Sequence record: SRR31156797_786
DNA: 41,746 nt
Direction: 5' to 3' (one strand)
Below, one piece after another: positions 3,295-14,015 of the stretch. How positions within the stretch are numbered: the stretch's first letter is position 1; every line of letters begins with the position of its first letter. Made by a program: the position numbers and the translations under genes. Under the pieces are notes generated by a model. The model ran no database searches. It saw only the letters and a program-made list of their open reading frames with translations, and had not been told where the DNA came from.

Positions 3295-4128
3295 ATGGAC
3301 CTGATAGTTTTGGAAGAAACACCACCTTGGGAATGGCCTGAAGGTACGGACGAAATGCTCTTGGGAATTCTTCGCGATAACCAAAAAGATAAAGCCGATC
3401 GCCTGCTGGCGGCAGGGCTGGCGGGTGACTATACGGTAATCAATGATGAACTCGCTGCTGTATTGCTCTCTATTGTGCGAAACGGTGCGGAATCGGAGGC
3501 GATCCGCGCAAAGGCGGTCATATCCCTGGGGCCGATTTTGGAAACCGCCCATATCGATGAGTTTGATGATCCCGAAGCCGTGCCCATTTCCGAAGAAACA
3601 TTCCACGGAATCCAGGCGTCACTCCGGGAACTCTACATGGATATGGATGTTCCCATGGAAGTTCGGCGTCGAACCTTGGAGGGTTCGGTGCGGGCGCCGC
3701 AAGAGTGGCACCAGGCGGCAATCCGTGAAGCGTATTCCAGCGACGACGCCTTATGGCGGCTCACCGCCGTCTTTTGTATGCAATATGTTCGGGGGTTCGA
3801 TGACCGGATTCTGGAGGCGTTGGAATCCGAAGACGAGGAGATTCATTATCAGGCGGTTTGTGCCGCGGGGAACTGGGGGATTGATGCCGCCTGGTCGCAC
3901 ATTAAAAGTCTCGCCGCCAGTGAGTTGACGGACAAATGGTTGCGGCTGGCGGCCATAGAGGCCGCGGCGAGCATCCGTCCCCGAGAGTCAGCGGAGATTC
4001 TCAGTGAGCTGACCTCATCCGATGACGAAGACATTGTGGAGACGGCCTACGAGGCCATGGCCATGTATGATTTGCTTCTGGACGAAGATTACGATGATGA
4101 TGACTGGGATGAAAGGGTCCTCCACTGA
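3295..4128 (+). CDS. HEAT-repeat protein with acidic tail
   Basis: AGGAGGGAG RBS before ATG 3295. Repeated helical motifs IRAKAVISLG, IHYQAVCAAG, LRLAAIEAAA. Confidence 0.8.
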   Translation: MDLIVLEETPPWEWPEGTDEMLLGILRDNQKDKADRLLAAGLAGDYTVINDELAAVLLSIVRNGAESEAIRAKAVISLGPILETAHIDEFDDPEAVPISEETFHGIQASLRELYMDMDVPMEVRRRTLEGSVRAPQEWHQAAIREAYSSDDALWRLTAVFCMQYVRGFDDRILEALESEDEEIHYQAVCAAGNWGIDAAWSHIKSLAASELTDKWLRLAAIEAAASIRPRESAEILSELTSSDDEDIVETAYEAMAMYDLLLDEDYDDDDWDERVLH

Positions 4129-4216
4129 AATGTCCCTCCTGGTTTACCTTCCAGCCCTCTTCTTCCGGTGGGAAGAGGATGTTCGCAAATGGCGCGGTTT
4201 CAAGAGAAAGGATCCA

Positions 4217-4453
4217 ATGAACGAAGAAAATGAATGCAAGCCGGATGCGGCGGTCTTTCTGGAACTGGCTAAAATGAGAATGCCTTTTGGAAAGTACAAG
4301 GGGCGTTTCCTGATCGACCTGCCCGAGCCTTATGTGGTCTGGTTTTCACAAAAAGGATTTCCCCAGGGAAGATTGGGCGATATGTTGGCAATGGTTTATG
4401 AGATCAAGGTAAACGGGCTGGAATATCTTTTCAAGCCTTTGCGGAAAGGGTAG
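4217..4453 (+). CDS. DUF3820-family small protein
   Basis: MPFGKYKGRFLIDLPEPYVVWF...YEIKVNGLEYL matches this family's characteristic pattern. Confidence 0.85.
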   Translation: MNEENECKPDAAVFLELAKMRMPFGKYKGRFLIDLPEPYVVWFSQKGFPQGRLGDMLAMVYEIKVNGLEYLFKPLRKG

Positions 4454-4580
4454 CTCACCGAAAAGAAGCGTACAAATCCCGTCTAAATGCCGTAAAGATC
4501 TCCCCCTGACCCTGCGAAGCGGTTATTTGCTGTATATATGTGTTTTTTTTACCTTCTAAATTTCCAATTCTGTATTTCAG

Positions 4581-4610
4581 TTGACAAAATTTAACTCAAA
4601 AGCCTATTAT
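4581..4610 (+). promoter_or_regulatory. Putative sigma70 promoter of the TonB/ECF operon
   Basis: TTGACA (4581-4586), 18-nt spacer, TATTAT (4605-4610). Confidence 0.55.
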
Positions 4611-4668
4611 CCGGGATCTCTGCCGCCACGACTTTAAAAGTGCGGGGCGGTGTTAGATTAATATTTTC

Positions 4669-6708
4669 ATGAGGAAGGGAATCAGTACAATGAAAAAGAA
4701 AGTGTTTGGAAGTTGGGTTCTGTTATTATCAGTTATCAGTACGGTTATATGGTTCTTGCCCGCTGCCGTGGCGGCGGAGGCGGAAGAACCGACTGAAGGT
4801 GTTTATACCCTGGGAGAGGTGGTGGTAACCGCCAGGCAGGATGTGGTGGAAACCGCCGGCACCGTTCGGGAGGTGACGGCCCGGGATATTGAAAACAAAG
4901 ACGCCAGGACCCTGGATCAGGCCCTGGAACTGCTGCCGGGCGTAGAGATCCGAACCGGAGCGGACGGTGTCCCCAGGATCGATATCCACGGTTTCAGGTC
5001 CCGCCATGTGCTGCTCCTTCTGGATGGGATTCCGCTCAACTCAACCTATGACGGTAATTTCGATCCCGCCATCATTCCCACGGAAAACATCGCCAAAATC
5101 AAGGTCAGCTACGGGACCAGTTCAGTCCTCTACGGCCAGGGGGGGCTGGGCGGTGTCATCAATATCATCACCAAAAAAGGAAAGCAGGGGATTCAGGGGA
5201 TGGCGTCAGGCGAAATCGGTGAAGGCTCCAGCCGTCTGGGCCGTTTCAATGTGGGGGGCGCAGCTGAAAAAGCCGATTTTTTCGTGAGCGGCAGCATGGC
5301 GGCCCGGGACGATTACCCGCTCTCCAACAATTTTGAAGCCACGCCGCTACAGGGGCGCGGTGAACGGAATAACAGCGATAACCGGCGGAATAATATTTTT
5401 GGCAACATCGGTTATTCCCCGACTGAAGAGTGGGATTTGGGATTGGTGGCCAGTATTGCCAACGGTCATTACGGCAAACCCCCCAGCACCAAACAGAATA
5501 CCAAAACAGACCCGGATCCCTATGCCAATAATCCCAAGTACGAACGGGTCAACCATTTTCAGAATTTTAACACGCAGTTTTCAACGAGCTACGATTTTCC
5601 CGGACCCATGGAGATGAGGGGCTGGTTCTATTACAACGAATATGACGAAAAGACCACCCGGTATGACGATGACAACTACAATTCTATGACCAAAAAAAAT
5701 ACTTATTATGAAGACGGCAACTCCAAAAACTGGGGAGGGACCATCCAGACGGCCCTGGATCTCACCAGTGCCGGTTCTTTTACCCTGGCCCTCGATGCGC
5801 AGAAACAGCAGTACGATTCCAAAGGAAAGATCCTGGATGTGAAAGTGGGAAAGCAATATGAAGCCAGGAATTTCGACGACTCCTGGAGCCTTTGGCTCTA
5901 CAGCGCTTCCCTGGAATATGAGATTATACTTTTTGACGCTCTTGGCGTGGTGCTGGGGTACGGCCAATACTGGCAGAACAAGGATGAGGGTGAAAACGAA
6001 AGCAAAGGAAGTTTCATGGGGGGCGTCTATTACGATATTGTCAAAGGGTCCCGGGTACGCGGTGCATTTGCCAAGAAAATCCGATTCCCCACCCTTCGGC
6101 AGCTCTACTCCGTTGGTGAAGGGAACCCTGATCTGAAACCGGAAACGTCTTATAACTACGAACTGGGATTTGAACAGAGACTGCCCCTCAATAGCCGGGT
6201 GGCCATTGACGGTTTTTTATCCGATGTGAATGACTACATTGAAAAACCGTATGATGACGACTATTTTCACAATTACGACAAATACCGGTTCCAGGGGTTT
6301 GAAATCACGGCGGAAACCCGTTTCATGGAAAATGTGCTGCTCCGTCTGGGGTACACCTTTATGGACACGGAGGACAAATCGCCCAACAGCCCCAAAGACG
6401 AGCTGCAGTACCGGCCCAAACACAAGCTGACGTTCGAGGGGAAATACACTTTCCACTTCGGCTTTTCCGCCTACGCCAATGTGATCTACAATGCAGACCA
6501 GTACTATTATGAGCGTTCGGAACCCTTTACCAAGGCAAAACTGGATAACTACGCCATTGTCAACCTGAAATTTGACCAGACCTTTTTCAACAATTTTCTG
6601 GATGTCTATATTGGTGCCGACAACCTTTTCGACAAAAATTATGAGCAAAGCTACGGATTCCCGGCGGCCGGAAGGATCATTTACGGGGGTGTGGCGGTTA
6701 ATTTCTAA
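4669..6708 (+). CDS. TonB-dependent outer membrane receptor (start may be 4690)
   Basis: Signal peptide; TonB-box-like EVVVTA; plug motifs LELLPGV, LLLDGIP, SVLYGQGGLGGVINIITK; GNPDLKPE; DNLFDKNY; C-terminal Phe. Confidence 0.95.
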   Translation: MRKGISTMKKKVFGSWVLLLSVISTVIWFLPAAVAAEAEEPTEGVYTLGEVVVTARQDVVETAGTVREVTARDIENKDARTLDQALELLPGVEIRTGADGVPRIDIHGFRSRHVLLLLDGIPLNSTYDGNFDPAIIPTENIAKIKVSYGTSSVLYGQGGLGGVINIITKKGKQGIQGMASGEIGEGSSRLGRFNVGGAAEKADFFVSGSMAARDDYPLSNNFEATPLQGRGERNNSDNRRNNIFGNIGYSPTEEWDLGLVASIANGHYGKPPSTKQNTKTDPDPYANNPKYERVNHFQNFNTQFSTSYDFPGPMEMRGWFYYNEYDEKTTRYDDDNYNSMTKKNTYYEDGNSKNWGGTIQTALDLTSAGSFTLALDAQKQQYDSKGKILDVKVGKQYEARNFDDSWSLWLYSASLEYEIILFDALGVVLGYGQYWQNKDEGENESKGSFMGGVYYDIVKGSRVRGAFAKKIRFPTLRQLYSVGEGNPDLKPETSYNYELGFEQRLPLNSRVAIDGFLSDVNDYIEKPYDDDYFHNYDKYRFQGFEITAETRFMENVLLRLGYTFMDTEDKSPNSPKDELQYRPKHKLTFEGKYTFHFGFSAYANVIYNADQYYYERSEPFTKAKLDNYAIVNLKFDQTFFNNFLDVYIGADNLFDKNYEQSYGFPAAGRIIYGGVAVNF

Positions 6709-6802
6709 TGGAAGCAGCGATTCGCTGTTAGCCTTTGAAATGGGGCGGTGGAGCCGTATTTCTAAGAGCAACCTTTTTTTATCTGATGAGAGGAGCCGAC
6801 AC

Positions 6803-7522
6803 ATGCGCGTCTATATCGGTTTTGACGATACCGACAACAAAAATGCCAACCGCGGTACCGGAAAACTGGCCCGGTGGTTTGAAAAAGAGCTGCCGGAAGG
6901 GTGCCGCATGTGGGGGGTGGTGCGTCAGCAGCTTTTGCTCCATGACGATATCCCCTACACGTCCCACAACAGTTCCGCCTGCGTGGTGGTGGACGTGCCG
7001 GATGGCGCCATGCTGGGGGAATTGACCGAAAAGGCGGTTGCCCACGTGGAGCGGCATTCCCTCGTGGGGAGCGACCCCGGGGTCTGTGTGGCCTCAAACG
7101 GCGACAACGACCTGTCGGTCCTGGTTGATTTCGGTCGTCTATGTACCCGGGAGGTGGTTTCACAGAAAGATGCCCTTAACGCGGCTTCCGGTGTTCACCT
7201 TTCCGGACACGGGGGCACCAACGACGGTATTATCGGGGCAGCCGCCGCCGTGGGGCTGACCGCTTCCGGGCGTAGCGGCCGGTTCATCGAATTCGGCGGG
7301 CTTCGGAACTTCCCCGAGCAGGTGACGGTATCCGAACTGGAGCAGTCCCGCATCCTCGTCATGTCCCTGGAACGGGATGCTCAACCCCCGGCACCCGACG
7401 ACCGGGTTCATACCCATAACTGGTTGCGGCCCAGGCTCTGGGGAAACCGGGCCGTCCTGGTTGCCCATAAAAAAGGTGAAGGCCTTTGGGAATCCCTGGG
7501 GAAAAAGCAAAAAAAGGGATAA
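6803..7522 (+). CDS. Stand-alone TiaS (tRNA-Ile2 agmatinyltransferase) N-terminal-like protein
   Basis: AGGAG RBS. Motifs IGFDDTD...GTG, IPYTSHNSSAC, SDPGVC and GIIGAAAAVG resemble the TiaS catalytic N-terminal domains. Only 239 aa, too short to include the tRNA-binding OB/Zn-ribbon domains. Confidence 0.75.
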   Translation: MRVYIGFDDTDNKNANRGTGKLARWFEKELPEGCRMWGVVRQQLLLHDDIPYTSHNSSACVVVDVPDGAMLGELTEKAVAHVERHSLVGSDPGVCVASNGDNDLSVLVDFGRLCTREVVSQKDALNAASGVHLSGHGGTNDGIIGAAAAVGLTASGRSGRFIEFGGLRNFPEQVTVSELEQSRILVMSLERDAQPPAPDDRVHTHNWLRPRLWGNRAVLVAHKKGEGLWESLGKKQKKG

Positions 7523-7559
7523 TGATCGCGATTTTATTGCACGATCCAGATTCAGTCAC

Positions 7560-8945
7560 ATGAGCCCTGTTATAGAGATAAGGGATTATTCCTATCGGTA
7601 TCCCGGGAGAGAGAAGTGGGCTTTATCCCGTCTGTCTTTATCGGTGGCGCCCGGCGAATGCATCTGCCTTTCGGGTCCGTCGGGTTGTGGCAAGAGCACC
7701 CTCTTTTTGGCCCTCAAGGGACTTTTGAAAGACGGCCGCGAAAAAGGGACCATACGGGTTGGGGGGAGCAACCGGCTTCCTTCGGCGGGGCTGGTATTTC
7801 AAAATGCCGAAAGCCACTTCCTTTGCACCAGCGTTGAGGATGAAGTGGCCTTCGGGCCGCAAAACCTCGGGCTCACCCCTCGGGAAATTGAGACCGCCGT
7901 CCGGAAAAGCCTGGATGCGGTGGCGCTGAGCGGTTTTGACACCCGAAACGTGGAAACCCTCTCCGCCGGACAGATGCATCGCCTGGCCATTGCATCGGTA
8001 CTCTCCGCATCCCCGGATATGCTGCTTCTGGACGAACCCACGGCCCAACTGGATGCGGACGGAAAGAGTCGCTTGACGGAACTGTTGAGTGGATTGAAGG
8101 CGGCGGGGCATACCCTGCTGATTGCCGATCATGAACTGGGTCCTTTTAAACCCCTGGTGGACCGTTTTGTCTTCATGGATGGGGGATGTATCAAAGGGAT
8201 TGGTCGCGAATTCCCTGCCGAATATACCCTTTCCCCCCCGGGGCGCCATGGTGGAATGCCGACAGGGGCGGGCGGAACCCATAATCCCCTGCTCTCGGTG
8301 AAGGGACTGTTTTTCACGGGCCGTAATGGCCGGCCCCTGTTTGATAATTTGAACCTGAGTCTCTTCCCGGGGCGGCTTGTGTTCATTTATGGTCAGAACG
8401 GCGTGGGTAAATCGACCCTCTTAAAATGCATGGCAGGGCTTATCCGGCCCGAGGCCGGCAGCATTGAAATGGCGGGAGCGGGGCTCCCGGGATTGGACAA
8501 GCTTTTCGGGAAAATGGGATTCCTTTTTCAGAACCCCGAACGGCAGCTTTTTGAAGATACGGTCCGGGATGAAGTGGGGTTTTCCCTTAAACGGATGGGA
8601 CTTTCAGCCCGGGATATCGAACCCCTTGTTGCCGAAGCCCTTGAAGTTTTTCATGTGGATCATTTGAAAGACCATTCACCCTTGACGCTCAGTTTCGGGG
8701 AACAGCACCGGGTGGCGCTGGCATCGGTGATGGCACCCCGGCCTGAAATCCTCATGCTGGATGAACCTTTTGCGGGTCTCGATTTTGCCCGGAGAAAAAA
8801 TATTTTGAAGATCCTGTCCCGTTTGTGTAAATCGCGGGGAACAACGGTGGTCATCGCATCCCACGAGTTTTTGCCTGAGGATACCTGGGCCCATGAAACG
8901 TTTGTTTTGAAGGAGGGGCATATTGAAAAAATGGAAACGTTCTGA
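7560..8945 (+). CDS. ECF transporter duplicated ATPase (EcfA-EcfA' fusion)
   Basis: Two Walker A motifs (GPSGCGKS, GQNGVGKS), two LLDEP/MLDEP Walker B motifs, FQN Q-loops, VEDEVAFGPQNLG. Confidence 0.9.
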   Translation: MSPVIEIRDYSYRYPGREKWALSRLSLSVAPGECICLSGPSGCGKSTLFLALKGLLKDGREKGTIRVGGSNRLPSAGLVFQNAESHFLCTSVEDEVAFGPQNLGLTPREIETAVRKSLDAVALSGFDTRNVETLSAGQMHRLAIASVLSASPDMLLLDEPTAQLDADGKSRLTELLSGLKAAGHTLLIADHELGPFKPLVDRFVFMDGGCIKGIGREFPAEYTLSPPGRHGGMPTGAGGTHNPLLSVKGLFFTGRNGRPLFDNLNLSLFPGRLVFIYGQNGVGKSTLLKCMAGLIRPEAGSIEMAGAGLPGLDKLFGKMGFLFQNPERQLFEDTVRDEVGFSLKRMGLSARDIEPLVAEALEVFHVDHLKDHSPLTLSFGEQHRVALASVMAPRPEILMLDEPFAGLDFARRKNILKILSRLCKSRGTTVVIASHEFLPEDTWAHETFVLKEGHIEKMETF

Positions 8946-9597
8946 AAAGGGTGGTTTCAAGGGAGATGCGTTTCAGTATTGCGCCGGTAACTCCCCCATC
9001 CACCGGTTGGGGCCGGGGTGGAAAATCATTCTGGCGGTTGCTTTTTCAGCCGCGGCCATTGCGGCCCGGGAACCGTGGATGCTGTTGTCCCTTCTGGCCG
9101 TGAACCTGGCTTATTATCTCTCCGCTCATCTGGGCGTCATGAACCTGTGGCGGGATATCCGGCTTTTCCTGGTCCAGATGGCCATTATATTGGTGCTTTA
9201 TCTGATCAAATACGGGGTCGCGGAAGGTCTCTGGCCGGGCTTGCGGACCGGTTGTCAGATCCTTCTCCTTTTTCTGCCGGGAACGGTCCTTCTTCGAACC
9301 ACCCAAGGGACGCAAATGATGGGGGGGCTAAAAAAAATCATGCCGGAACGCTTGAGTTTTCTCCTCTTCACCAGCCTGCGATTTGTCCCCTTCTTTGCCC
9401 GTGAGACCCGGGAGATTGCCATGGCCCAACAGCTTCGCGGGGCACCCGTGGGCTTTCGTTACGCCTGGAACCCCCTCCACTGGAAGGACCAGTTCCATTG
9501 CCTGATGATCCCCCTCATGGTACGGGCCCTGAAAACCGCCAGGTCAGCGGCCCTTTCCGCCGAGGCCCGGGGTTTTGAAGAGCGGCTCCGCCCATGA
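8923..9597 (+). CDS. ecfT: ECF transporter transmembrane T component
   Basis: SPIHRL..WK start, LRFVP, conserved QLRG and EARG motifs. Exact start uncertain. Confidence 0.9.
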   Translation: MKKWKRSEKGGFKGDAFQYCAGNSPIHRLGPGWKIILAVAFSAAAIAAREPWMLLSLLAVNLAYYLSAHLGVMNLWRDIRLFLVQMAIILVLYLIKYGVAEGLWPGLRTGCQILLLFLPGTVLLRTTQGTQMMGGLKKIMPERLSFLLFTSLRFVPFFARETREIAMAQQLRGAPVGFRYAWNPLHWKDQFHCLMIPLMVRALKTARSAALSAEARGFEERLRP

Positions 9598-10127
9598 AAA
9601 AATTCACCCTTCAGGAAGCCCTCTGCCTGGCATTCTGCGCCTGCTTCATCGTCATTACCCGGGCCGTATTTCGGTTGCACTTAAATATTCCCGGGCATGC
9701 CATGTTTTTCACCATGTTCTTCCTGATTCTGGGGAGGGGTTGTGTCCCCCGAATGGGCGCTTCCACACTGATGGGACTCCTGGCGGGCCTTTTGTGCACC
9801 CTGTTGGGTATGGGCAAGGGGGGACCGTTGATTATCCTGAAATTTCTGGTCCCCGGCCTCATCGTTGACCTGGCGGGCCTTTTTTCCAAGGGACTGGCCG
9901 GAAGCTATGTGGCTTGCGCCATCGTGGGCGCCCTGGGGGCCGCCAGCCGTTTTTTGACCATCATCGTGGTGGAATGGGTCATCGGAATGGAGTGGGATCT
10001 CATCCTTCAACACGCGCTGATTTCATCAGCCTGCGGCGTTGTTTTCGGGGTCTTGGGTTCTTTGATGGCACCCCCCATTGTGCGAAAACTGACGGCCCAT
10101 GGTCTGATTGCCCCGCGCCCTGCATAG
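9594..10127 (+). CDS. Putative ECF substrate-specific S component, substrate unknown
   Basis: 177 aa, about 5-6 hydrophobic helices, ATGA-coupled to ecfT. Confidence 0.75.
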   Translation: MKKFTLQEALCLAFCACFIVITRAVFRLHLNIPGHAMFFTMFFLILGRGCVPRMGASTLMGLLAGLLCTLLGMGKGGPLIILKFLVPGLIVDLAGLFSKGLAGSYVACAIVGALGAASRFLTIIVVEWVIGMEWDLILQHALISSACGVVFGVLGSLMAPPIVRKLTAHGLIAPRPA

Positions 10128-10174
10128 CCTGATCCCTTGAGTGCCCGGCATGTCAATCCCTTCCCCGCGCCATC

Positions 10175-10480
10175 CTACCCCGAAATGTCTGTTTCAACAG
10201 GCGGTTCGAATTTCAGATTGTTTTTTTTAAGATATTCCTGAGAACTGATGAGTCTTTCTCCTTTATACTCCATATTCACTGCCTGGTATTGACAGTTATT
10301 GAGGCATCCGAAACAGAGAACACAGGTATTTCTGTTGATGGTATAGGCATCCAGATCGATGGAGTCGGTGGGGCATTTCATAACGCAGGTGCCGCATTCC
10401 ACGCATTCTTGATCAATAATGGAATGATTGTCAACGGATTGCTTGGTCCACCATTCGGGGCCGAAAAAAGTGGAAAATTC
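10175..10480 (-). pseudogene. 3' remnant of a 2x[4Fe-4S] ferredoxin-domain gene (flavodoxin-ferredoxin/EFR1-like)
   Basis: CVECGTCVMKCP and CVLCFGCLNNC. The frame continues upstream (TFFGPEWWTKQSVDNHSIIDQE) to a stop near 10483 with no ATG or RBS. Confidence 0.65.
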
Positions 10481-10519
10481 TCTTAAAAAAGAAAAAATAT
10501 CGTAAAAATTATTAAATTC

Positions 10520-10548
10520 TTGACAAATGATCGGTATAGCTCTATCAA
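10520..10548 (+). promoter_or_regulatory. Putative sigma70 promoter giving a leaderless lrp transcript
   Basis: TTGACA 10520-10525, 17-nt spacer, TATCAA 10543-10548. ATG at 10555 with no Shine-Dalgarno. Confidence 0.45.
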
Positions 10549-10554
10549 CTTAGA

Positions 10555-11031
10555 ATGTTAGACGAAATTGATCTGGAAATTCTGAGGATGTTGCAGGAGG
10601 ATGCGCGGGTGTCCAATAGCGCCATAGCCCGTTGTACGGGGATGGCGACCTCTGCGATTTTCGAGCGGATCAGGAAGCTCAAGGCCGTGGGCCTCATTAG
10701 AGGCTATCGGATCGACCTTGAACCCAGTATGCTGGGGATGGGCGTGCTGGCCTATGTTTTTGTTAAGGTTAACATCAGGCCGGGGCAGCCCGATACGGCC
10801 CTTTTATTGGCGGAAATTCCGGAAATTCAGGAGGTACACCACATTGCCGGTGAAGACTGCCTGATGGTTAAGATTTGGGCGCCGGATACCGAAACCCTGG
10901 GAGATCTTTTGACTGAACGTATCCACTGTCTGGAGGATGTGCAATCCACCCGTACCACCATTGTGTTGAAAACCGTAAAGGACACGGCCGAATTACCACT
11001 GACGTATGTGGTAGGGGAGTGCAAAAAATGA
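10555..11031 (+). CDS. Lrp/AsnC family transcriptional regulator
   Basis: LDEIDLEILRMLQEDARVS...ERIRKL..GLIRGY HTH; EVHHIAGED; TRTTIVL. Confidence 0.95.
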   Translation: MLDEIDLEILRMLQEDARVSNSAIARCTGMATSAIFERIRKLKAVGLIRGYRIDLEPSMLGMGVLAYVFVKVNIRPGQPDTALLLAEIPEIQEVHHIAGEDCLMVKIWAPDTETLGDLLTERIHCLEDVQSTRTTIVLKTVKDTAELPLTYVVGECKK

Positions 11032-12359
11032 AAGTTGCCATTGTCGGCGCCGGGATAGCCGGGTTGAGTTGTGGTCACCGGCTTGTCCGGGCCGGGCTGC
11101 AACCGGTGGTTTTCGAACGCGAGGCCTTTGCCGGCGGGCGGACCCATTCTTGTGAAAAAGACGGCTTCGTGATGGATACGGGCGCTTATACGATCCCCCA
11201 ATTCCATAAATATTTTCTGGCTTTGGTGGAGGAGCTGGGGCTCTCGGCCGATTTGGCTGAAGCCTCGGGCAATTCGGTCATCTATAAGGCCGGCCGTCCC
11301 CACCGGATGGAGATCGGCTCTCCGGCCGATTTTATGCAATTGAAGCTGTTGCCGTTTAAAAGCAAGGCAAAGCTGGTTAAAATCTTTATGCGTGCCGTTT
11401 CACTGGGTAAACATCTGGATTTGAATCGGCCCGATGCCAAGACGTTCCAATTGGAGCAGGAGAGCGCTGCAAAATACCTATTGCGCAAAGATGGCGGCGA
11501 TTTATTGACTCACATCGCCTGGCCGGTCTTCAGCGAGCTTTTCCTCGGAAATCCGGAAAACAACTCCAAGGCCGCGTTTTTGTCCACCATTCGAAAACTG
11601 GTCCGATTCAAAATTTTCTGTCTCAATTCCGGGATGGGAACGGTGGCCCGAAAGCTTGCCGCGAAGATGACGGTGCGGTTCAATACCCCGGTGGTTAGGG
11701 TCCGCCGGAACGGGTCCGGCGACGTCTGGCGGGTCGAATGGGGCGGTGAAAATCCTGGGAGCGCATGTTTCGATCACGTTGTTTTGGCTCTTCCGCCACC
11801 CCTTGTCCCCGATCTTTGCGCCTCCCTATCCCCCTCGACCGCCGCCCTATGCCGGGGGGTCGTATACGAACCCTGTTTGGTCGTTGCCCTGGCACTAAAA
11901 AAACCGCCTGCGGGCCAGGCCGTGATTTGCGCCATGCTCAGGGAAGAGTTCCCCCATGTGGCCACCGTAATTTTCGATCATCTCAAGGGACCCGGCCGTG
12001 TTCCCCGGGGGAAAGGGTTGTTAACCGCCATCCTATCCGCCGATGCCAGCCGCAAATTCCATAAGGCAGGCGATAGCCGGATCCGTGCCGTCGTTCTGGA
12101 CGAATTAACACCTTTGTGGCCCGAACTTCAACACGATTTGCTGTTTGCAAAGGTTTTTCGCTGGCAACAGGCGGCCGTACAACTACCTGAAGGCGCACTC
12201 AAGGCCCAGGTGCGGCTGCGGGAAGCGCTGCAAACGGAACATGATCACCTTCATTTTATCGGTGACGGTTATTTCCGCAGCAGCATGGAGATCGGGGTTG
12301 TCACCGGTTATGGTGCTGCCGAGCGGATACTGGCGGCCGGGCTGGCAGCCGATCGGTAA
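11028..12359 (+). CDS. FAD-dependent oxidoreductase (amine oxidase / protoporphyrinogen-oxidase-like family)
   Basis: VAIVGAGIAGL...FERE..AGGR...DTGA dinucleotide-binding motif; C-terminal IGD...SME...SG-like motif; ATGA overlap with lrp. Confidence 0.85.
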   Translation: MKVAIVGAGIAGLSCGHRLVRAGLQPVVFEREAFAGGRTHSCEKDGFVMDTGAYTIPQFHKYFLALVEELGLSADLAEASGNSVIYKAGRPHRMEIGSPADFMQLKLLPFKSKAKLVKIFMRAVSLGKHLDLNRPDAKTFQLEQESAAKYLLRKDGGDLLTHIAWPVFSELFLGNPENNSKAAFLSTIRKLVRFKIFCLNSGMGTVARKLAAKMTVRFNTPVVRVRRNGSGDVWRVEWGGENPGSACFDHVVLALPPPLVPDLCASLSPSTAALCRGVVYEPCLVVALALKKPPAGQAVICAMLREEFPHVATVIFDHLKGPGRVPRGKGLLTAILSADASRKFHKAGDSRIRAVVLDELTPLWPELQHDLLFAKVFRWQQAAVQLPEGALKAQVRLREALQTEHDHLHFIGDGYFRSSMEIGVVTGYGAAERILAAGLAADR

Positions 12360-12545
12360 TCTTTCTATTCCGGATAAAATAGCGGTTTTGATCCTACCAC
12401 TCTTCCCGAGCTGCTTGACTGCCCCCCCCCCCATGGCGCACAGTTATAATGGCGCCGATGAGGGTGCGCCTATTTCCTTTTTCAGCCCTTCTGAAATGGG
12501 TTGAGAGTATAGAAGTTGACCGTTTGACGAGATATCAAAAAACAC

Positions 12546-12591
12546 TTGACATGAATTGCTCATACATCTAAGTTGAATCAACGTTGAATTC
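12546..12591 (+). promoter_or_regulatory. Putative sigma70 promoter with overlapping palindromic operator
   Basis: TTGACA 12546-12551, 17-nt spacer, TAAGTT 12569-12574. Overlapping palindromes GTTGA-A-TCAAC (12572-12582) and TCAACGTTGA (12578-12587). Confidence 0.55.
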
Positions 12592-12692
12592 ATTTCGAAT
12601 GTATGTGCACATAATTTTTGAATATGGGGCTTTCGAGCCGTTAATGTCTACGGGTTTGAACATGTCCTTTTTAAGGAAGAAAAGAGAACTCT

Positions 12693-14015
12693 GTGACTTA
12701 TACGGTTAAAGACATTCTTAAAATGGAGGTGGCCCCGGCACTTGGCTGCACGGAACCCGCAGCCATAGCGTTGGGTGCGGCCTCGGCCAGGGCTCTTTTG
12801 CAGGGGCCGGATCTTGATAAAATCGAAATTTGGGTTGATCCCAATATTTATAAAAATGCCATGGCCGCTTCCATACCCGGAGCGGTTGGCATGTCCGGCC
12901 TCGATATGGCGGCAGCCCTCGGCGCTCTGGGTGGAGATCCGGCCCTGAAACTTGAAGTCCTGCAGCCCGTGGACGAGCGGACAGCCAAAATCGCCAGACA
13001 GCTTATCGAGGCCGGAAAAGTCAAAGTTAACCTGCTACGGGACCAGCAGGGCCTATATATTCGATCCGTTCTTAAGAGCGGCGGCGAAACGGCGGAATCC
13101 GTTATAAAGGATGTGCATGACAATTTGGTTTCTCTTGTTTTAAATGGGGAAGACGTTACCGAAAATATTCTTCTTGCGAAAGGGAGTCTTCAACATTCGA
13201 AACAACTGGCGGATCTCGAAGCCTGGCTGAAAAAATTGTCCCTTGAAGAACTGTTGGGATTTATTAATGAACTGGACTCGGAGGATTTGGAATTCCTGGA
13301 TCAGGGAGTTCAAACCAACATTCGACTGGCGGAATTTGGTCTCAACAATGGTTCAGGCATGGGTGTGGGTCGAACTCTACAGGAAATGGCACATCAGGGA
13401 TTGCTCAAAAGGGACATGATGCTGGCCGCCCGCATCATAACTTCTGCGGGCGCGGATGCCCGAATGTCCGGCGTTAAATTGCCTGCCATGTCTTCCGCCG
13501 GAAGCGGCAATCATGGCCTTACCGCCATCCTTCCCATTTATGCGGTTAAGGAATTTATTGAATGTGATCAAAACGCATTCTTGAAGGCGGTATGCCTCAG
13601 CCATCTGGTTACGGCCTACATAAAGGCCCATACCGGCAGGCTTTCCGCGGTTTGCGGTTGCTCCGTGGCAGCGGGCGCCGGCGCCGGCGCCGGAATTACC
13701 TACCTTTTGGGAGGAGACGCCCGGATGATTGCCGGCGCCGTCACGAACCTGATCGGAGATCTGGCCGGAGTCATATGCGACGGGGCCAAGCCGAGTTGTG
13801 CTTTCAAATTATCCACGGCAGCGGGTACCGCGGTTCAGGCGGCCCTTTTCGCTCAGAGGGGCGTGGGCGTTCATCCAAATGACGGTATTACCGGGTTGTC
13901 TTTTGAACAGACCAGCCAAAATATCGGGGAATTAAGCATCCAGGGGATGATCGAAACGGACCGGGCAATCCTGGGTATCATGCTGAAAAAGCAGTTTGTA
14001 GGTGGTAAATCCTGA
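12693..14015 (+). CDS. cyuA: L-cysteine desulfidase-like protein (CyuA/YhaM, serine dehydratase alpha-like family)
   Basis: PALGCTEP, NIYKNA, DARMSG, MSSAGSGNHG, GRLSAVCGC, GVICDGAKPSCAFK, QGMIETD. Confidence 0.88.
   Translation: MTYTVKDILKMEVAPALGCTEPAAIALGAASARALLQGPDLDKIEIWVDPNIYKNAMAASIPGAVGMSGLDMAAALGALGGDPALKLEVLQPVDERTAKIARQLIEAGKVKVNLLRDQQGLYIRSVLKSGGETAESVIKDVHDNLVSLVLNGEDVTENILLAKGSLQHSKQLADLEAWLKKLSLEELLGFINELDSEDLEFLDQGVQTNIRLAEFGLNNGSGMGVGRTLQEMAHQGLLKRDMMLAARIITSAGADARMSGVKLPAMSSAGSGNHGLTAILPIYAVKEFIECDQNAFLKAVCLSHLVTAYIKAHTGRLSAVCGCSVAAGAGAGAGITYLLGGDARMIAGAVTNLIGDLAGVICDGAKPSCAFKLSTAAGTAVQAALFAQRGVGVHPNDGITGLSFEQTSQNIGELSIQGMIETDRAILGIMLKKQFVGGKS

Follow-up and report, generated by a model that had tools for sequence, protein, structure and literature searches.

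A TonB-Dependent Receptor, a TiaS-Like Protein and an ECF Transporter in One Gene Cluster: A Candidate Importer of Tungsten or Molybdenum Species

A Candidate Two-Membrane Importer

The 41,746-nt stretch of DNA from sequence record SRR31156797_786 (hereafter "the window," always at its full length) contains, at positions 4581–10127, a cluster of five genes that encode a TonB-dependent receptor (TBDR), a stand-alone protein resembling the tRNA enzyme TiaS (here called TiaSL), and the fused ATPase (AA'), T, and S components of an energy-coupling factor (ECF) transporter. Tungsten and molybdenum are the theme common to all of the contexts in which relatives of these genes are found, and the cluster is therefore read here as an importer of tungsten or molybdenum species. 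In our judgment it rather probably encodes a high-affinity system that carries such a species, or a chelate of it, across two membranes, together with a cytoplasmic enzyme that uses ATP in handling the metal. This reading builds on what was observed of gene content, folds of predicted models, conservation of linkage, and the way in which relatives are regulated. Pointers to tungsten are the TupA/WtpA-type neighbors, riboswitches of the molybdenum-cofactor (Moco) class that lack the P3 stem, and the many AOR-family genes of the genomes that carry TiaSL.

Genomic Neighborhoods of TiaSL

Homologs of TiaSL were sought in a phylum sample of 401 genomes centered on the closest genome used (G001, whose TiaSL is 86% identical to that of the window). 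Thirty genomes were positive, and 29 loci were examined over about 8 kb on each side, with neighbors mapped by tblastn and Pfam; one genome (G165) was left out, its match lying at a contig end. The most frequent neighbor, within about 8 kb in 19 of the 29 loci, is a gene for a 276-aa protein of the amino-acid-kinase family that proved to be a full-length homolog of the molybdenum storage protein, MoSto (PDB 2ogx_B, E = 2.6e-63). Components of oxyanion ATP-binding cassette (ABC) importers are also common, with a TupA-like binding protein in 10 loci and a TupB-like permease in seven, and further neighbors are a regulator with HTH_17 and PBP_like domains (6/29), ABC systems of the FecCD plus Peripla_BP_2 kind (5/29), and MoeA (2/29). 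Six loci have a receptor of the window type, and six have ECF T or S components. Taken together, 22 of the 29 loci include at least one molybdenum/tungsten marker and 20 at least one transporter; L063 is the only locus without any of these markers or transporters.

Scored against curated models, the neighboring ABC genes are nearest to TupA, TupB, and WtpC without reaching the respective cut-offs, while a protein that adjoins an ECF-TiaSL-S cluster (L060, 5585–6610) is a WtpA above the cut-off (407.4 vs. 355). The HTH_17 plus PBP_like regulators match the binding domain that occurs in fusion with a "molybdopterin biosynthesis protein," and genes for AOR, formate dehydrogenase, and FmdE also lie near TiaSL.

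A sequence-only reading of the window had named as grounds for giving up its proposal either a lack of linkage between TiaS-like genes and transporters or the placement of the S component and TBDR in a characterized family that fully explains the operon. The survey found the linkage (20/29 genome loci), and both the S component and the TBDR lie outside characterized families (see below), so neither ground applies.

Three further features of these loci were recorded. Genes for Porin_O_P (phosphate-selective porin) stand beside strings of Tup, MoSto-like, and TiaSL genes at L045 551–1930 and L055 10500–11792, the former with a Moco-motif RNA of its own (1989–2109); they may provide an outer-membrane route for anions in loci without a TBDR. 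A UPF0014 membrane protein is encoded directly upstream of a FecCD-type importer and TiaSL in L062 (3360–4827) and L064 (3965–4759), preceded by an ABC ATPase that was recognized by Pfam in L062 and by tblastn only in L064. Finally, in G204 TiaSL (one TGA, three pieces; L065 7939–8641) and the adjoining MoSto-like gene (four in-frame stops; 8933–9754) both look decayed.

Phyletic Pattern and Phylogeny

The association with MoSto-like genes extends beyond gene neighborhoods. With MoSto-like genes called at E ≤ 1e-40, 35 of the 401 genomes are positive: 25 of the 30 with TiaSL, vs. 10 of the 371 without it (Fisher one-sided p = 6.4e-27; with relatedness among the genomes uncorrected, the association can be no stronger than this). 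The co-occurrence includes genomes in which the two genes are not neighbors (G083, G124, G184, and others). Every genome with a strong match to the S component (7/7) is TiaSL-positive. Weak S-like matches in G003 and G049 are flanked by a Mod/Wtp-type ABC operon on one side and by tandem MoSto-like genes on the other, a layout that was annotated for G003 and taken from coordinates alone for G049. Neither of these two genomes has TiaSL; the G003 match is a 374-aa ORF (open reading frame; L114 5934–7058) with a stretch distantly resembling S components (profile E = 4e-11).

In a quick maximum-likelihood tree, 47 TiaSL rows fall into two deep clades with full support. Both clades contain ECF contexts, and the well-supported branches force at least three changes of the ECF label. 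The TiaSL of the window nests among rows linked to Tup and MoSto-like genes. The placement of L056 and L096 is unsure because of their long branches.

Genomes that carry TiaSL also encode sizable AOR families (19 matches in G001, 16 in G242, 8 in G124, 7 in G184, and 6 in G083). AOR genes were found in 328 of the 401 genomes overall, comprising 30 of 30 TiaSL-positive genomes and 298 of the 371 others (p = 0.0019). The 19 matches in G001, an 8.2-Mb genome, are to the AOR N-terminal domain and make up a very large set of putative tungstoenzymes.

Riboswitches and Loci Found Through the S Component

Rfam was run at gathering thresholds on 28 of the 29 genome loci and on four loci from close relatives (L001, L003–L005). 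The sole riboswitch class recovered was RF01055, the Moco motif, with five RNAs in four loci (L041, L045 twice, L049, and L056). The L056 RNA (7711–7831, 53.8 bits) lies directly ahead of six genes on one strand, in the order TiaSL (7998–8726), receptor (8693–10831), a 334-aa gene, a divergent S component (12093–12860; hhalign probability 99.5%, E = 6.5e-23), AA', and T. The P3 stem is absent from all five RF01055 RNAs whose alignments were inspected. Regulski et al. report that P3 is missing from 58 of 176 Moco RNAs and that, in 17 of 19 organisms, its absence accompanies tungsten-cofactor genes (PMC2408646).

Metagenome contigs were scanned with an alignment of the S family, which yielded 47 loci, among them the near-duplicates L105/L106 and L082/L110. 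Mapped by tblastn, they have the order receptor-AA'-T-S, with TiaSL before the ATPase gene, between T and S, downstream of S, or at a distance of a few kb; it was seen in 29 of the 47, many of which are short. The 13 loci of at least 9 kb all encode a TBDR (13/13), and 10 of them have TiaSL and seven have molybdenum/tungsten markers (L070, L073, L078, L081, L082, L085, and L105).

We also built a covariance model of the P3-less RNA (R1) and ran it over 61 sources (508 kb). Strong matches were confined to L056 and L073, the latter with three that Rfam confirms. One of the L073 RNAs (63.5 bits) is located directly ahead of the receptor-ECF operon, and the two others (76–78 bits) elsewhere in the locus, where the gene order is TiaSL (partial), MoSto-like, riboswitch (1392–1512), a 156-aa gene, tonB, receptor, AA', T, and S. 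RF01055 was thus found upstream of the homologous operons of L056 and L073, where it identifies the pathway, and not upstream of the operon in the window. Matches to R1 in L068 (18.8 bits, inside the TiaSL gene on the opposite strand), L073 11198–11328 (17.3 bits), and L003 (11.8 bits) were rejected as noise. With Rfam, no cobalamin, thiamine pyrophosphate, flavin mononucleotide, or other riboswitch class was detected in the window, the 28 genome loci, L001 and L003–L005, or 11 long metagenome loci.

Moco RNAs of the P3-less type were also observed upstream of strings of beta-propeller proteins (L073 12921–13042 and 14612–14732, both on the minus strand, and L116 1352–1473 on the plus strand). 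These proteins are BNR/YCF48-like or Rax2-like, and one of them has thrombospondin type 3 repeats. In each of two loci such strings are convergent with the ECF cluster. L114 likewise has a BNR-like gene, located after its MoSto pair, and the strings may also belong to the Moco-motif regulon. Extra genes that belong to no known family occur in or beside the receptor-ECF operons of L056 (10934–11938, 334 aa), L057 (5737–7545, 602 aa, fn3-bearing), and L073 (1625–2095, 156 aa), and they differ between these loci.

Protein Families Encoded by the Cluster

TiaSL consists of a TCKD kinase-type domain (approximately residues 1–155), which includes the motifs DDTD (residues 8–11) and IPYTSHN (residues 50–56), and a small beta-rich C-terminal domain. 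Its scores against TiaS family models fall short of the cut-offs (Pfam TiaS_TCKD, 17.1 bits vs. 27; NCBIfam TiaS equivalog, 24.6 bits vs. 600, covering profile positions 1–153 of 422), but the alignment with PDB 4rvz (E = 0.0038) spans residues 1–155 and matches MRVxxGxDDTD. An AlphaFold model computed from 31 homologs (pLDDT 91.3) has TiaS as its best match with both Foldseek (E = 2.3e-9, root-mean-square deviation 2.5 Å over 158 columns) and VIA (Z = 19.3, 2.2 Å over 148 residues), the next VIA row being unrelated (Z = 6.8). HPPK pterin kinases match at background level (Foldseek E of about 0.01, VIA Z = 6.0–6.3). Based on sequence and predicted structure, we conclude that TiaSL is homologous to TiaS. 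The OB fold and zinc ribbon that serve as tRNA-binding domains are absent from TiaSL, which ends at residue 239.

Twenty-four positions are invariant among 31 TiaSL sequences (D8, D9, T10, D11, G18, T19, G20, R41, Q43, T53, S54, H55, N56, S57, C60, S90, P92, G93, C95, G137, G138, G142, G145, and R160). They include parts of a glycine-rich stretch, HLSxHGGxxxGxIGA, and of two invariant motifs of the family's own, TSHNSxxC and GSDPGxC. The family is large, with 2751 matches at E ≤ 1e-3 (90% clustering) and 833 clusters at 50% identity, and several sources label members of it "TiaS." No informative fusion was found: the long representatives P0321, P0368, P0382, and P0328 have no second domain. 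A search for relatives of at least 420 aa also found none, which is weak evidence.

The transporter genes fit the description of a group I ECF system, having CbiO-type ATPase units, a CbiQ-family T component, and a protein with the S-component fold. The fused ATPase belongs to the cbiO subfamily (TIGR01166, 296.7 bits vs. a cut-off of 211.8) and comes close to the ECF_ATPase_2 cut-off (313.1 vs. 330). The T component scores below the CbiQ equivalog (TIGR02454, 37.2 vs. 111.8). The S component matches no Pfam or NCBIfam family, PF09819 giving only E = 0.066; in neither database did CbiM or NikM match it even at E ≤ 1, which places it outside the CbiMNQO/NikMNQO systems. Its AlphaFold model (pLDDT 87.7) has seven helices, the seventh short and the other six long and of membrane type, and the 11 best Foldseek rows are all solved ECF S components, with 5edl first (TMq 0.72), then PanT, ThiT, and RibU, at weak E-values of 1e-3 and above. 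Judged by its modeled fold, the 177-aa protein is an ECF S component, of a specificity that its family does not define: the 165 matches are all hypothetical or unnamed except for two generic ECF/permease annotations. Residues R27, H29, H35, K75, D92, and H140 are kept across the S-family alignment.

The TBDR has a signal peptide, a TonB-box-like EVVVTA ahead of the plug domain, and the plug and 22-strand barrel that define TonB-dependent receptors. It probably starts at the ATG at 4690 because orthologs align from residue 8 of the longer version. Its scores are far below every curated equivalog cut-off (e.g., TonB-B12, 143.7 vs. 599.7; BtuB, 132.6 vs. 836). The best partial matches are BtuB, siderophore, and heme receptors, and BtuB is both the best partial NCBIfam match and the closest solved chain (E = 9.8e-27, partial). 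Orthologs are 38–89% identical and adjoin ECF genes or FecCD-type ABC genes, and the homologous operons in L057 and L073 include a tonB gene.

Organization of the Cluster and Its Leader

The features of the cluster are listed in Table 1. According to the ORF list, all five genes lie downstream of a single promoter-like site, with successive distances of +94, +37, −23, and −4 nt, the last two being overlaps, and TiaSL is preceded by a GAGGAG ribosome-binding site 8 nt upstream. A single transcription unit is the best explanation of this arrangement. The promoter-like site is kept in five of five close orthologous loci (the window, L001, L066, L068, and L069), where the conserved stretch reads TTGACAAAAT.TAAC.CAA...CTATTAT, and not in the more distant L070.

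Table 1. Features of the candidate importer cluster, with positions counted from the first letter of the window.
Feature	Position	Strand	Length (aa)	Basis
Promoter-like site, TTGACA-18 nt-TATTAT	4581–4610	+		11 of 12 consensus positions
Short leader without known riboswitch; hairpin at about 4615–4659	4611–4689	+		Rfam; own covariance model R1
TonB-dependent receptor (TBDR)	4690–6708 (alternative start 4669)	+		Pfam Plug 84.4 bits, barrel 115.7 bits
Stand-alone TiaS-like protein, TiaSL (P0001)	6803–7522	+	239	TCKD fold
Fused ECF ATPase (A-A')	7560–8945	+	461	Two ABC_tran stretches; cbiO subfamily
ECF T component, CbiQ family	8923–9597	+	224	PF02361, 61.3 bits vs. cut-off 25
ECF S component, unnamed family	9594–10127	+	177	AlphaFold model and Foldseek

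Rfam gave no family at threshold anywhere in the window and none at E ≤ 10 in positions 4100–4800, and R1 found no match in the window. The GC-rich leader hairpin has a folding energy of −18.2 kcal/mol, which is not significant relative to shuffled sequence (z = −1.48). A search of the window for an E. coli-type Fur box returned no match at up to three mismatches, a weak test for this phylum. The orthologous leaders vary in sequence at the hairpin, yet also look self-complementary. Before the promoter-like site lies a gene of the Pfam family QSregVF_b (4022–4453), whose 3' end aligns in five of five close orthologous loci and which is thus syntenic.

Most of what the sequence-only reading had described is borne out. 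ORFs, family scores, and spacing agree with its picture of five co-directional, tightly spaced genes behind a promoter-like site, and the leader indeed lacks a riboswitch motif by both Rfam and R1. The TiaS likeness it proposed for the 239-aa protein was recovered by sequence and structure comparison alike, the tRNA-binding domains are missing as it had stated, and the S component falls outside the named families of Pfam and NCBIfam while having the fold of ECF S components.

Proposed Function and Alternative Explanations

We propose that the TBDR takes up scarce tungsten or molybdenum species across the outer membrane, and that the dedicated ECF transporter, an AA'-T module with a new S component, carries them into the cytoplasm. 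As we infer it, the transported species might be tungstate itself, free and extremely dilute, but the type of receptor makes a chelated or otherwise bulky form more likely. A complexed rather than free form is suggested because the TBDR, the BtuF-class proteins of sister loci, and the S component are all hardware for chelates. The basic and histidine residues kept in the S component (R27, H29, H35, K75, and H140) would suit an anion, though they are no proof of one. TiaSL would be a cytoplasmic enzyme in which the kinase core of TiaS, with its ATP binding, is retained and the tRNA-binding parts are gone. It would act on the metal after import, whichever importer delivers it (Tup/Wtp ABC, FecCD-type ABC, or ECF), probably using ATP to activate or release tungstate, or to pass it on to a MoSto-like store or, through MoeA, into cofactor synthesis.

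A bolder version of this proposal, which we put forward tentatively and hold to be possible rather than probable, is that the TiaSL family comprises new ATP-dependent enzymes that activate or transfer tungstate (or molybdate), reusing a tRNA-cytidine kinase core and perhaps setting the choice of tungsten over molybdenum, and that the receptor and ECF transporter form the first TonB-dependent, ECF-type importer of tungsten species. The invariant residues Cys60, Cys95, His55, and Thr19 would then lie at the active site, tungsten would pass from the importers to a MoSto-like store or MoeA, and the imported substrate might be a chelate ("tungstophore") or, in sulfidic habitats, thiotungstate.

Several points weigh against a tungsten or molybdenum importer. 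The window itself contains no molybdenum/tungsten gene, no Moco-motif RNA, and no adjacent regulator, so that the assignment comes wholly from relatives; no oxyanion-binding protein, permease, or TOBE ATPase of the Tup, Wtp, or Mod kind is encoded in the window cluster, and all of these stand beside its relatives. A riboswitch precedes the operon in only two (L056 and L073) of the 20-odd receptor-ECF loci with upstream sequence, and two long ECF loci (L074 and L101) have no TiaSL. The MoSto-like query found nothing in G001 or G242, and the presence of AOR genes discriminates weakly because they are common in the phylum. Classically, moreover, TonB-dependent receptors, S components, and BtuF-class binding proteins serve organic chelates and vitamins rather than small oxyanions. 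A further caution comes from Eubacterium limosum, where tungsten-cofactor (P3-less) riboswitches precede two "Fe ABC-type" transporters that the authors of the study read as serving iron uptake (PMC11725836); given this case, co-regulation with tungsten need not mean tungsten transport.

Because of the E. limosum case, uptake of iron or another metal chelate is the main rival to the tungsten/molybdenum reading. The cluster would then import iron or another metal chelate that Fe-S-rich tungstoenzymes require in bulk, be merely co-regulated with the tungsten cofactor, and use TiaSL for release or processing of the chelate. The best partial matches of the TBDR (BtuB, siderophore, and heme receptors) and the FecCD plus Peripla_BP_2 systems in sister loci fit such a role. 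However, TiaSL stands equally often by Tup/Wtp-type ABC and MoSto-like genes without any chelate hardware, its phyletic tie is to MoSto-like genes, and the search for a Fur box, weak as that test is, was negative. The E. limosum data themselves cut both ways: by the same account, FetABC1 rose under tungsten limitation (PMC11725836), which fits tungsten scavenging at least as well. We regard iron or chelate uptake as unlikely. The second rival, salvage of an organic cofactor or precursor, is the idea of the sequence-only reading that an imported heterocycle or cofactor is modified by the TiaS-like enzyme, here narrowed by the riboswitch to a compound such as a pyranopterin or one related to Moco or the tungsten cofactor, on which TiaSL would perform an ATP-dependent step. 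Most ECF S components import vitamins, bulky organics enter through TonB-dependent receptors, a Moco or tungsten-cofactor riboswitch would also repress a salvage route, and there are the faint HPPK fold matches of TiaSL noted above. Against this, the commonest partners of TiaSL are oxyanion importers, which have no organic substrate, and a metal-storage homolog, not pterin enzymes; MoeA is near in only two of 29 loci, and the annotated neighborhoods showed neither Moa nor Mog genes. The basic and histidine residues of the S component suit an anion here too, without proving anything. With MoSto-like and Tup/Wtp genes, MoeA, molybdate-type regulators, and P3-less riboswitches as the context of relatives, the organic-substrate idea is not supported, and we consider it quite unlikely.

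Two other explanations carry far less weight. TiaSL might be a kinase or modifier of nucleic acid or protein (the counterpart of TiaS in bacteria, or a protein that regulates the transporters) that sits in these operons for regulatory reasons. Compatible with this, TiaS autophosphorylates, and TiaSL has the same TCKD fold and DDTD motif along with an invariant threonine (Thr19) close to Thr18 of TiaS, but it has no OB fold or zinc ribbon, scores 24.6 bits against a TiaS cut-off of 600, and keeps its linkage to three transporter types and MoSto-like genes across a deep tree. The tRNA(Ile2) task in bacteria, moreover, belongs to TilS (PMC11938285), and such a role for TiaSL seems very improbable. 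Least credible of all is corrinoid uptake by a BtuB-like receptor and an ECF transporter of the CbrT kind, with the TiaS-like gene unrelated. Although BtuB is the best solved and the best NCBIfam partial match of the TBDR, the scores given above are so far under the cut-offs that the receptor falls outside the BtuB family; Rfam found no cobalamin riboswitch in the window or in the receptor-ECF loci scanned, the S family has no named relative, and the context is molybdenum/tungsten throughout. We therefore retain import of a tungsten or molybdenum species as the preferred reading.

Should that reading be right, the TBDR and ECF transporter would constitute a fourth route of tungsten/molybdenum import and the first to cross both membranes actively, and the substrate range of ECF transporters would extend to tungsten. 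To our knowledge, only three oxyanion ABC families (Mod, Tup, and Wtp) are established for import of these metals. Little is understood of how anaerobes with many tungstoenzymes acquire tungsten from trace amounts and keep it separate from molybdenum, and the findings give a direct, testable handle on tungsten trafficking. The tie of TiaSL to MoSto-like genes is tighter than those of most accessory genes to their partners. The large TiaSL family is at present unannotated or mislabeled as a tRNA enzyme, and the proposed function would correct "TiaS" annotations in bacterial metagenomes. Our literature searches, whose scope excluded supplements and a paper on a tungstate-responsive regulator, returned no paper that ties TiaS-like proteins, ECF transporters, or TBDRs to tungsten or molybdenum uptake.

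Comparison With Known Systems

TiaSL has in common with TiaS (PDB 3amt, 4rvz) the N-terminal TCKD fold, and the two align gap-free over MRVxxGxDDTD, IPY, and the GxIGAxAAVG stretch. Beyond the TCKD, part of TiaSL may correspond to the FLD of TiaS: the model match reaches residue 219, and TiaS_FLD occurs in 11% of the members of Atlas clusters sister to TiaSL. The two differ in length (239 vs. about 420 aa), in the lack of OB fold and zinc ribbon in the bacterial TiaSL, in the TSHNSxxC and GSDPGxC motifs that are its own, and in its context of metal transport and storage. MoSto of Azotobacter vinelandii (PDB 2ogx) is represented by the commonest neighbor and phyletic partner of TiaSL, a full-length homolog of its beta subunit; MoSto is an alpha/beta pair, whereas the TiaSL-linked genomes have a single gene. 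The window lacks this gene, the query used did not recover it from G001, and metal storage by the MoSto-like protein is putative.

The E. limosum fetABC1/2 systems are likewise chelate-type importers behind P3-less RF01055 RNAs, FetABC1 being induced by tungsten limitation. They differ in being of FecCD type, in belonging to a Gram-positive host, and in having been read as iron uptake, and the main text has no occurrence of "TiaS" (PMC11725836).

With TupABC, WtpABC, and ModABC the window importer would have its role, the acquisition of tungsten or molybdenum, in common, along with neighborhoods, regulators, and P3-less riboswitches. It differs from them in being of ECF type, with a membrane-embedded S component instead of a periplasmic binding protein, and in having a TBDR. 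Among ECF systems of group I (CbiMNQO/NikMNQO and YkoEDC), it resembles the known members in its operon of ATPase and CbiQ-type T component and in the predicted six-helix fold of its S component, with 5edl as best match. It departs from them in that A and A' are fused, in that the S component lies outside CbiM/NikM and the other named families, and in that window-type clusters are coupled to an outer-membrane receptor in all 13 of the long loci.

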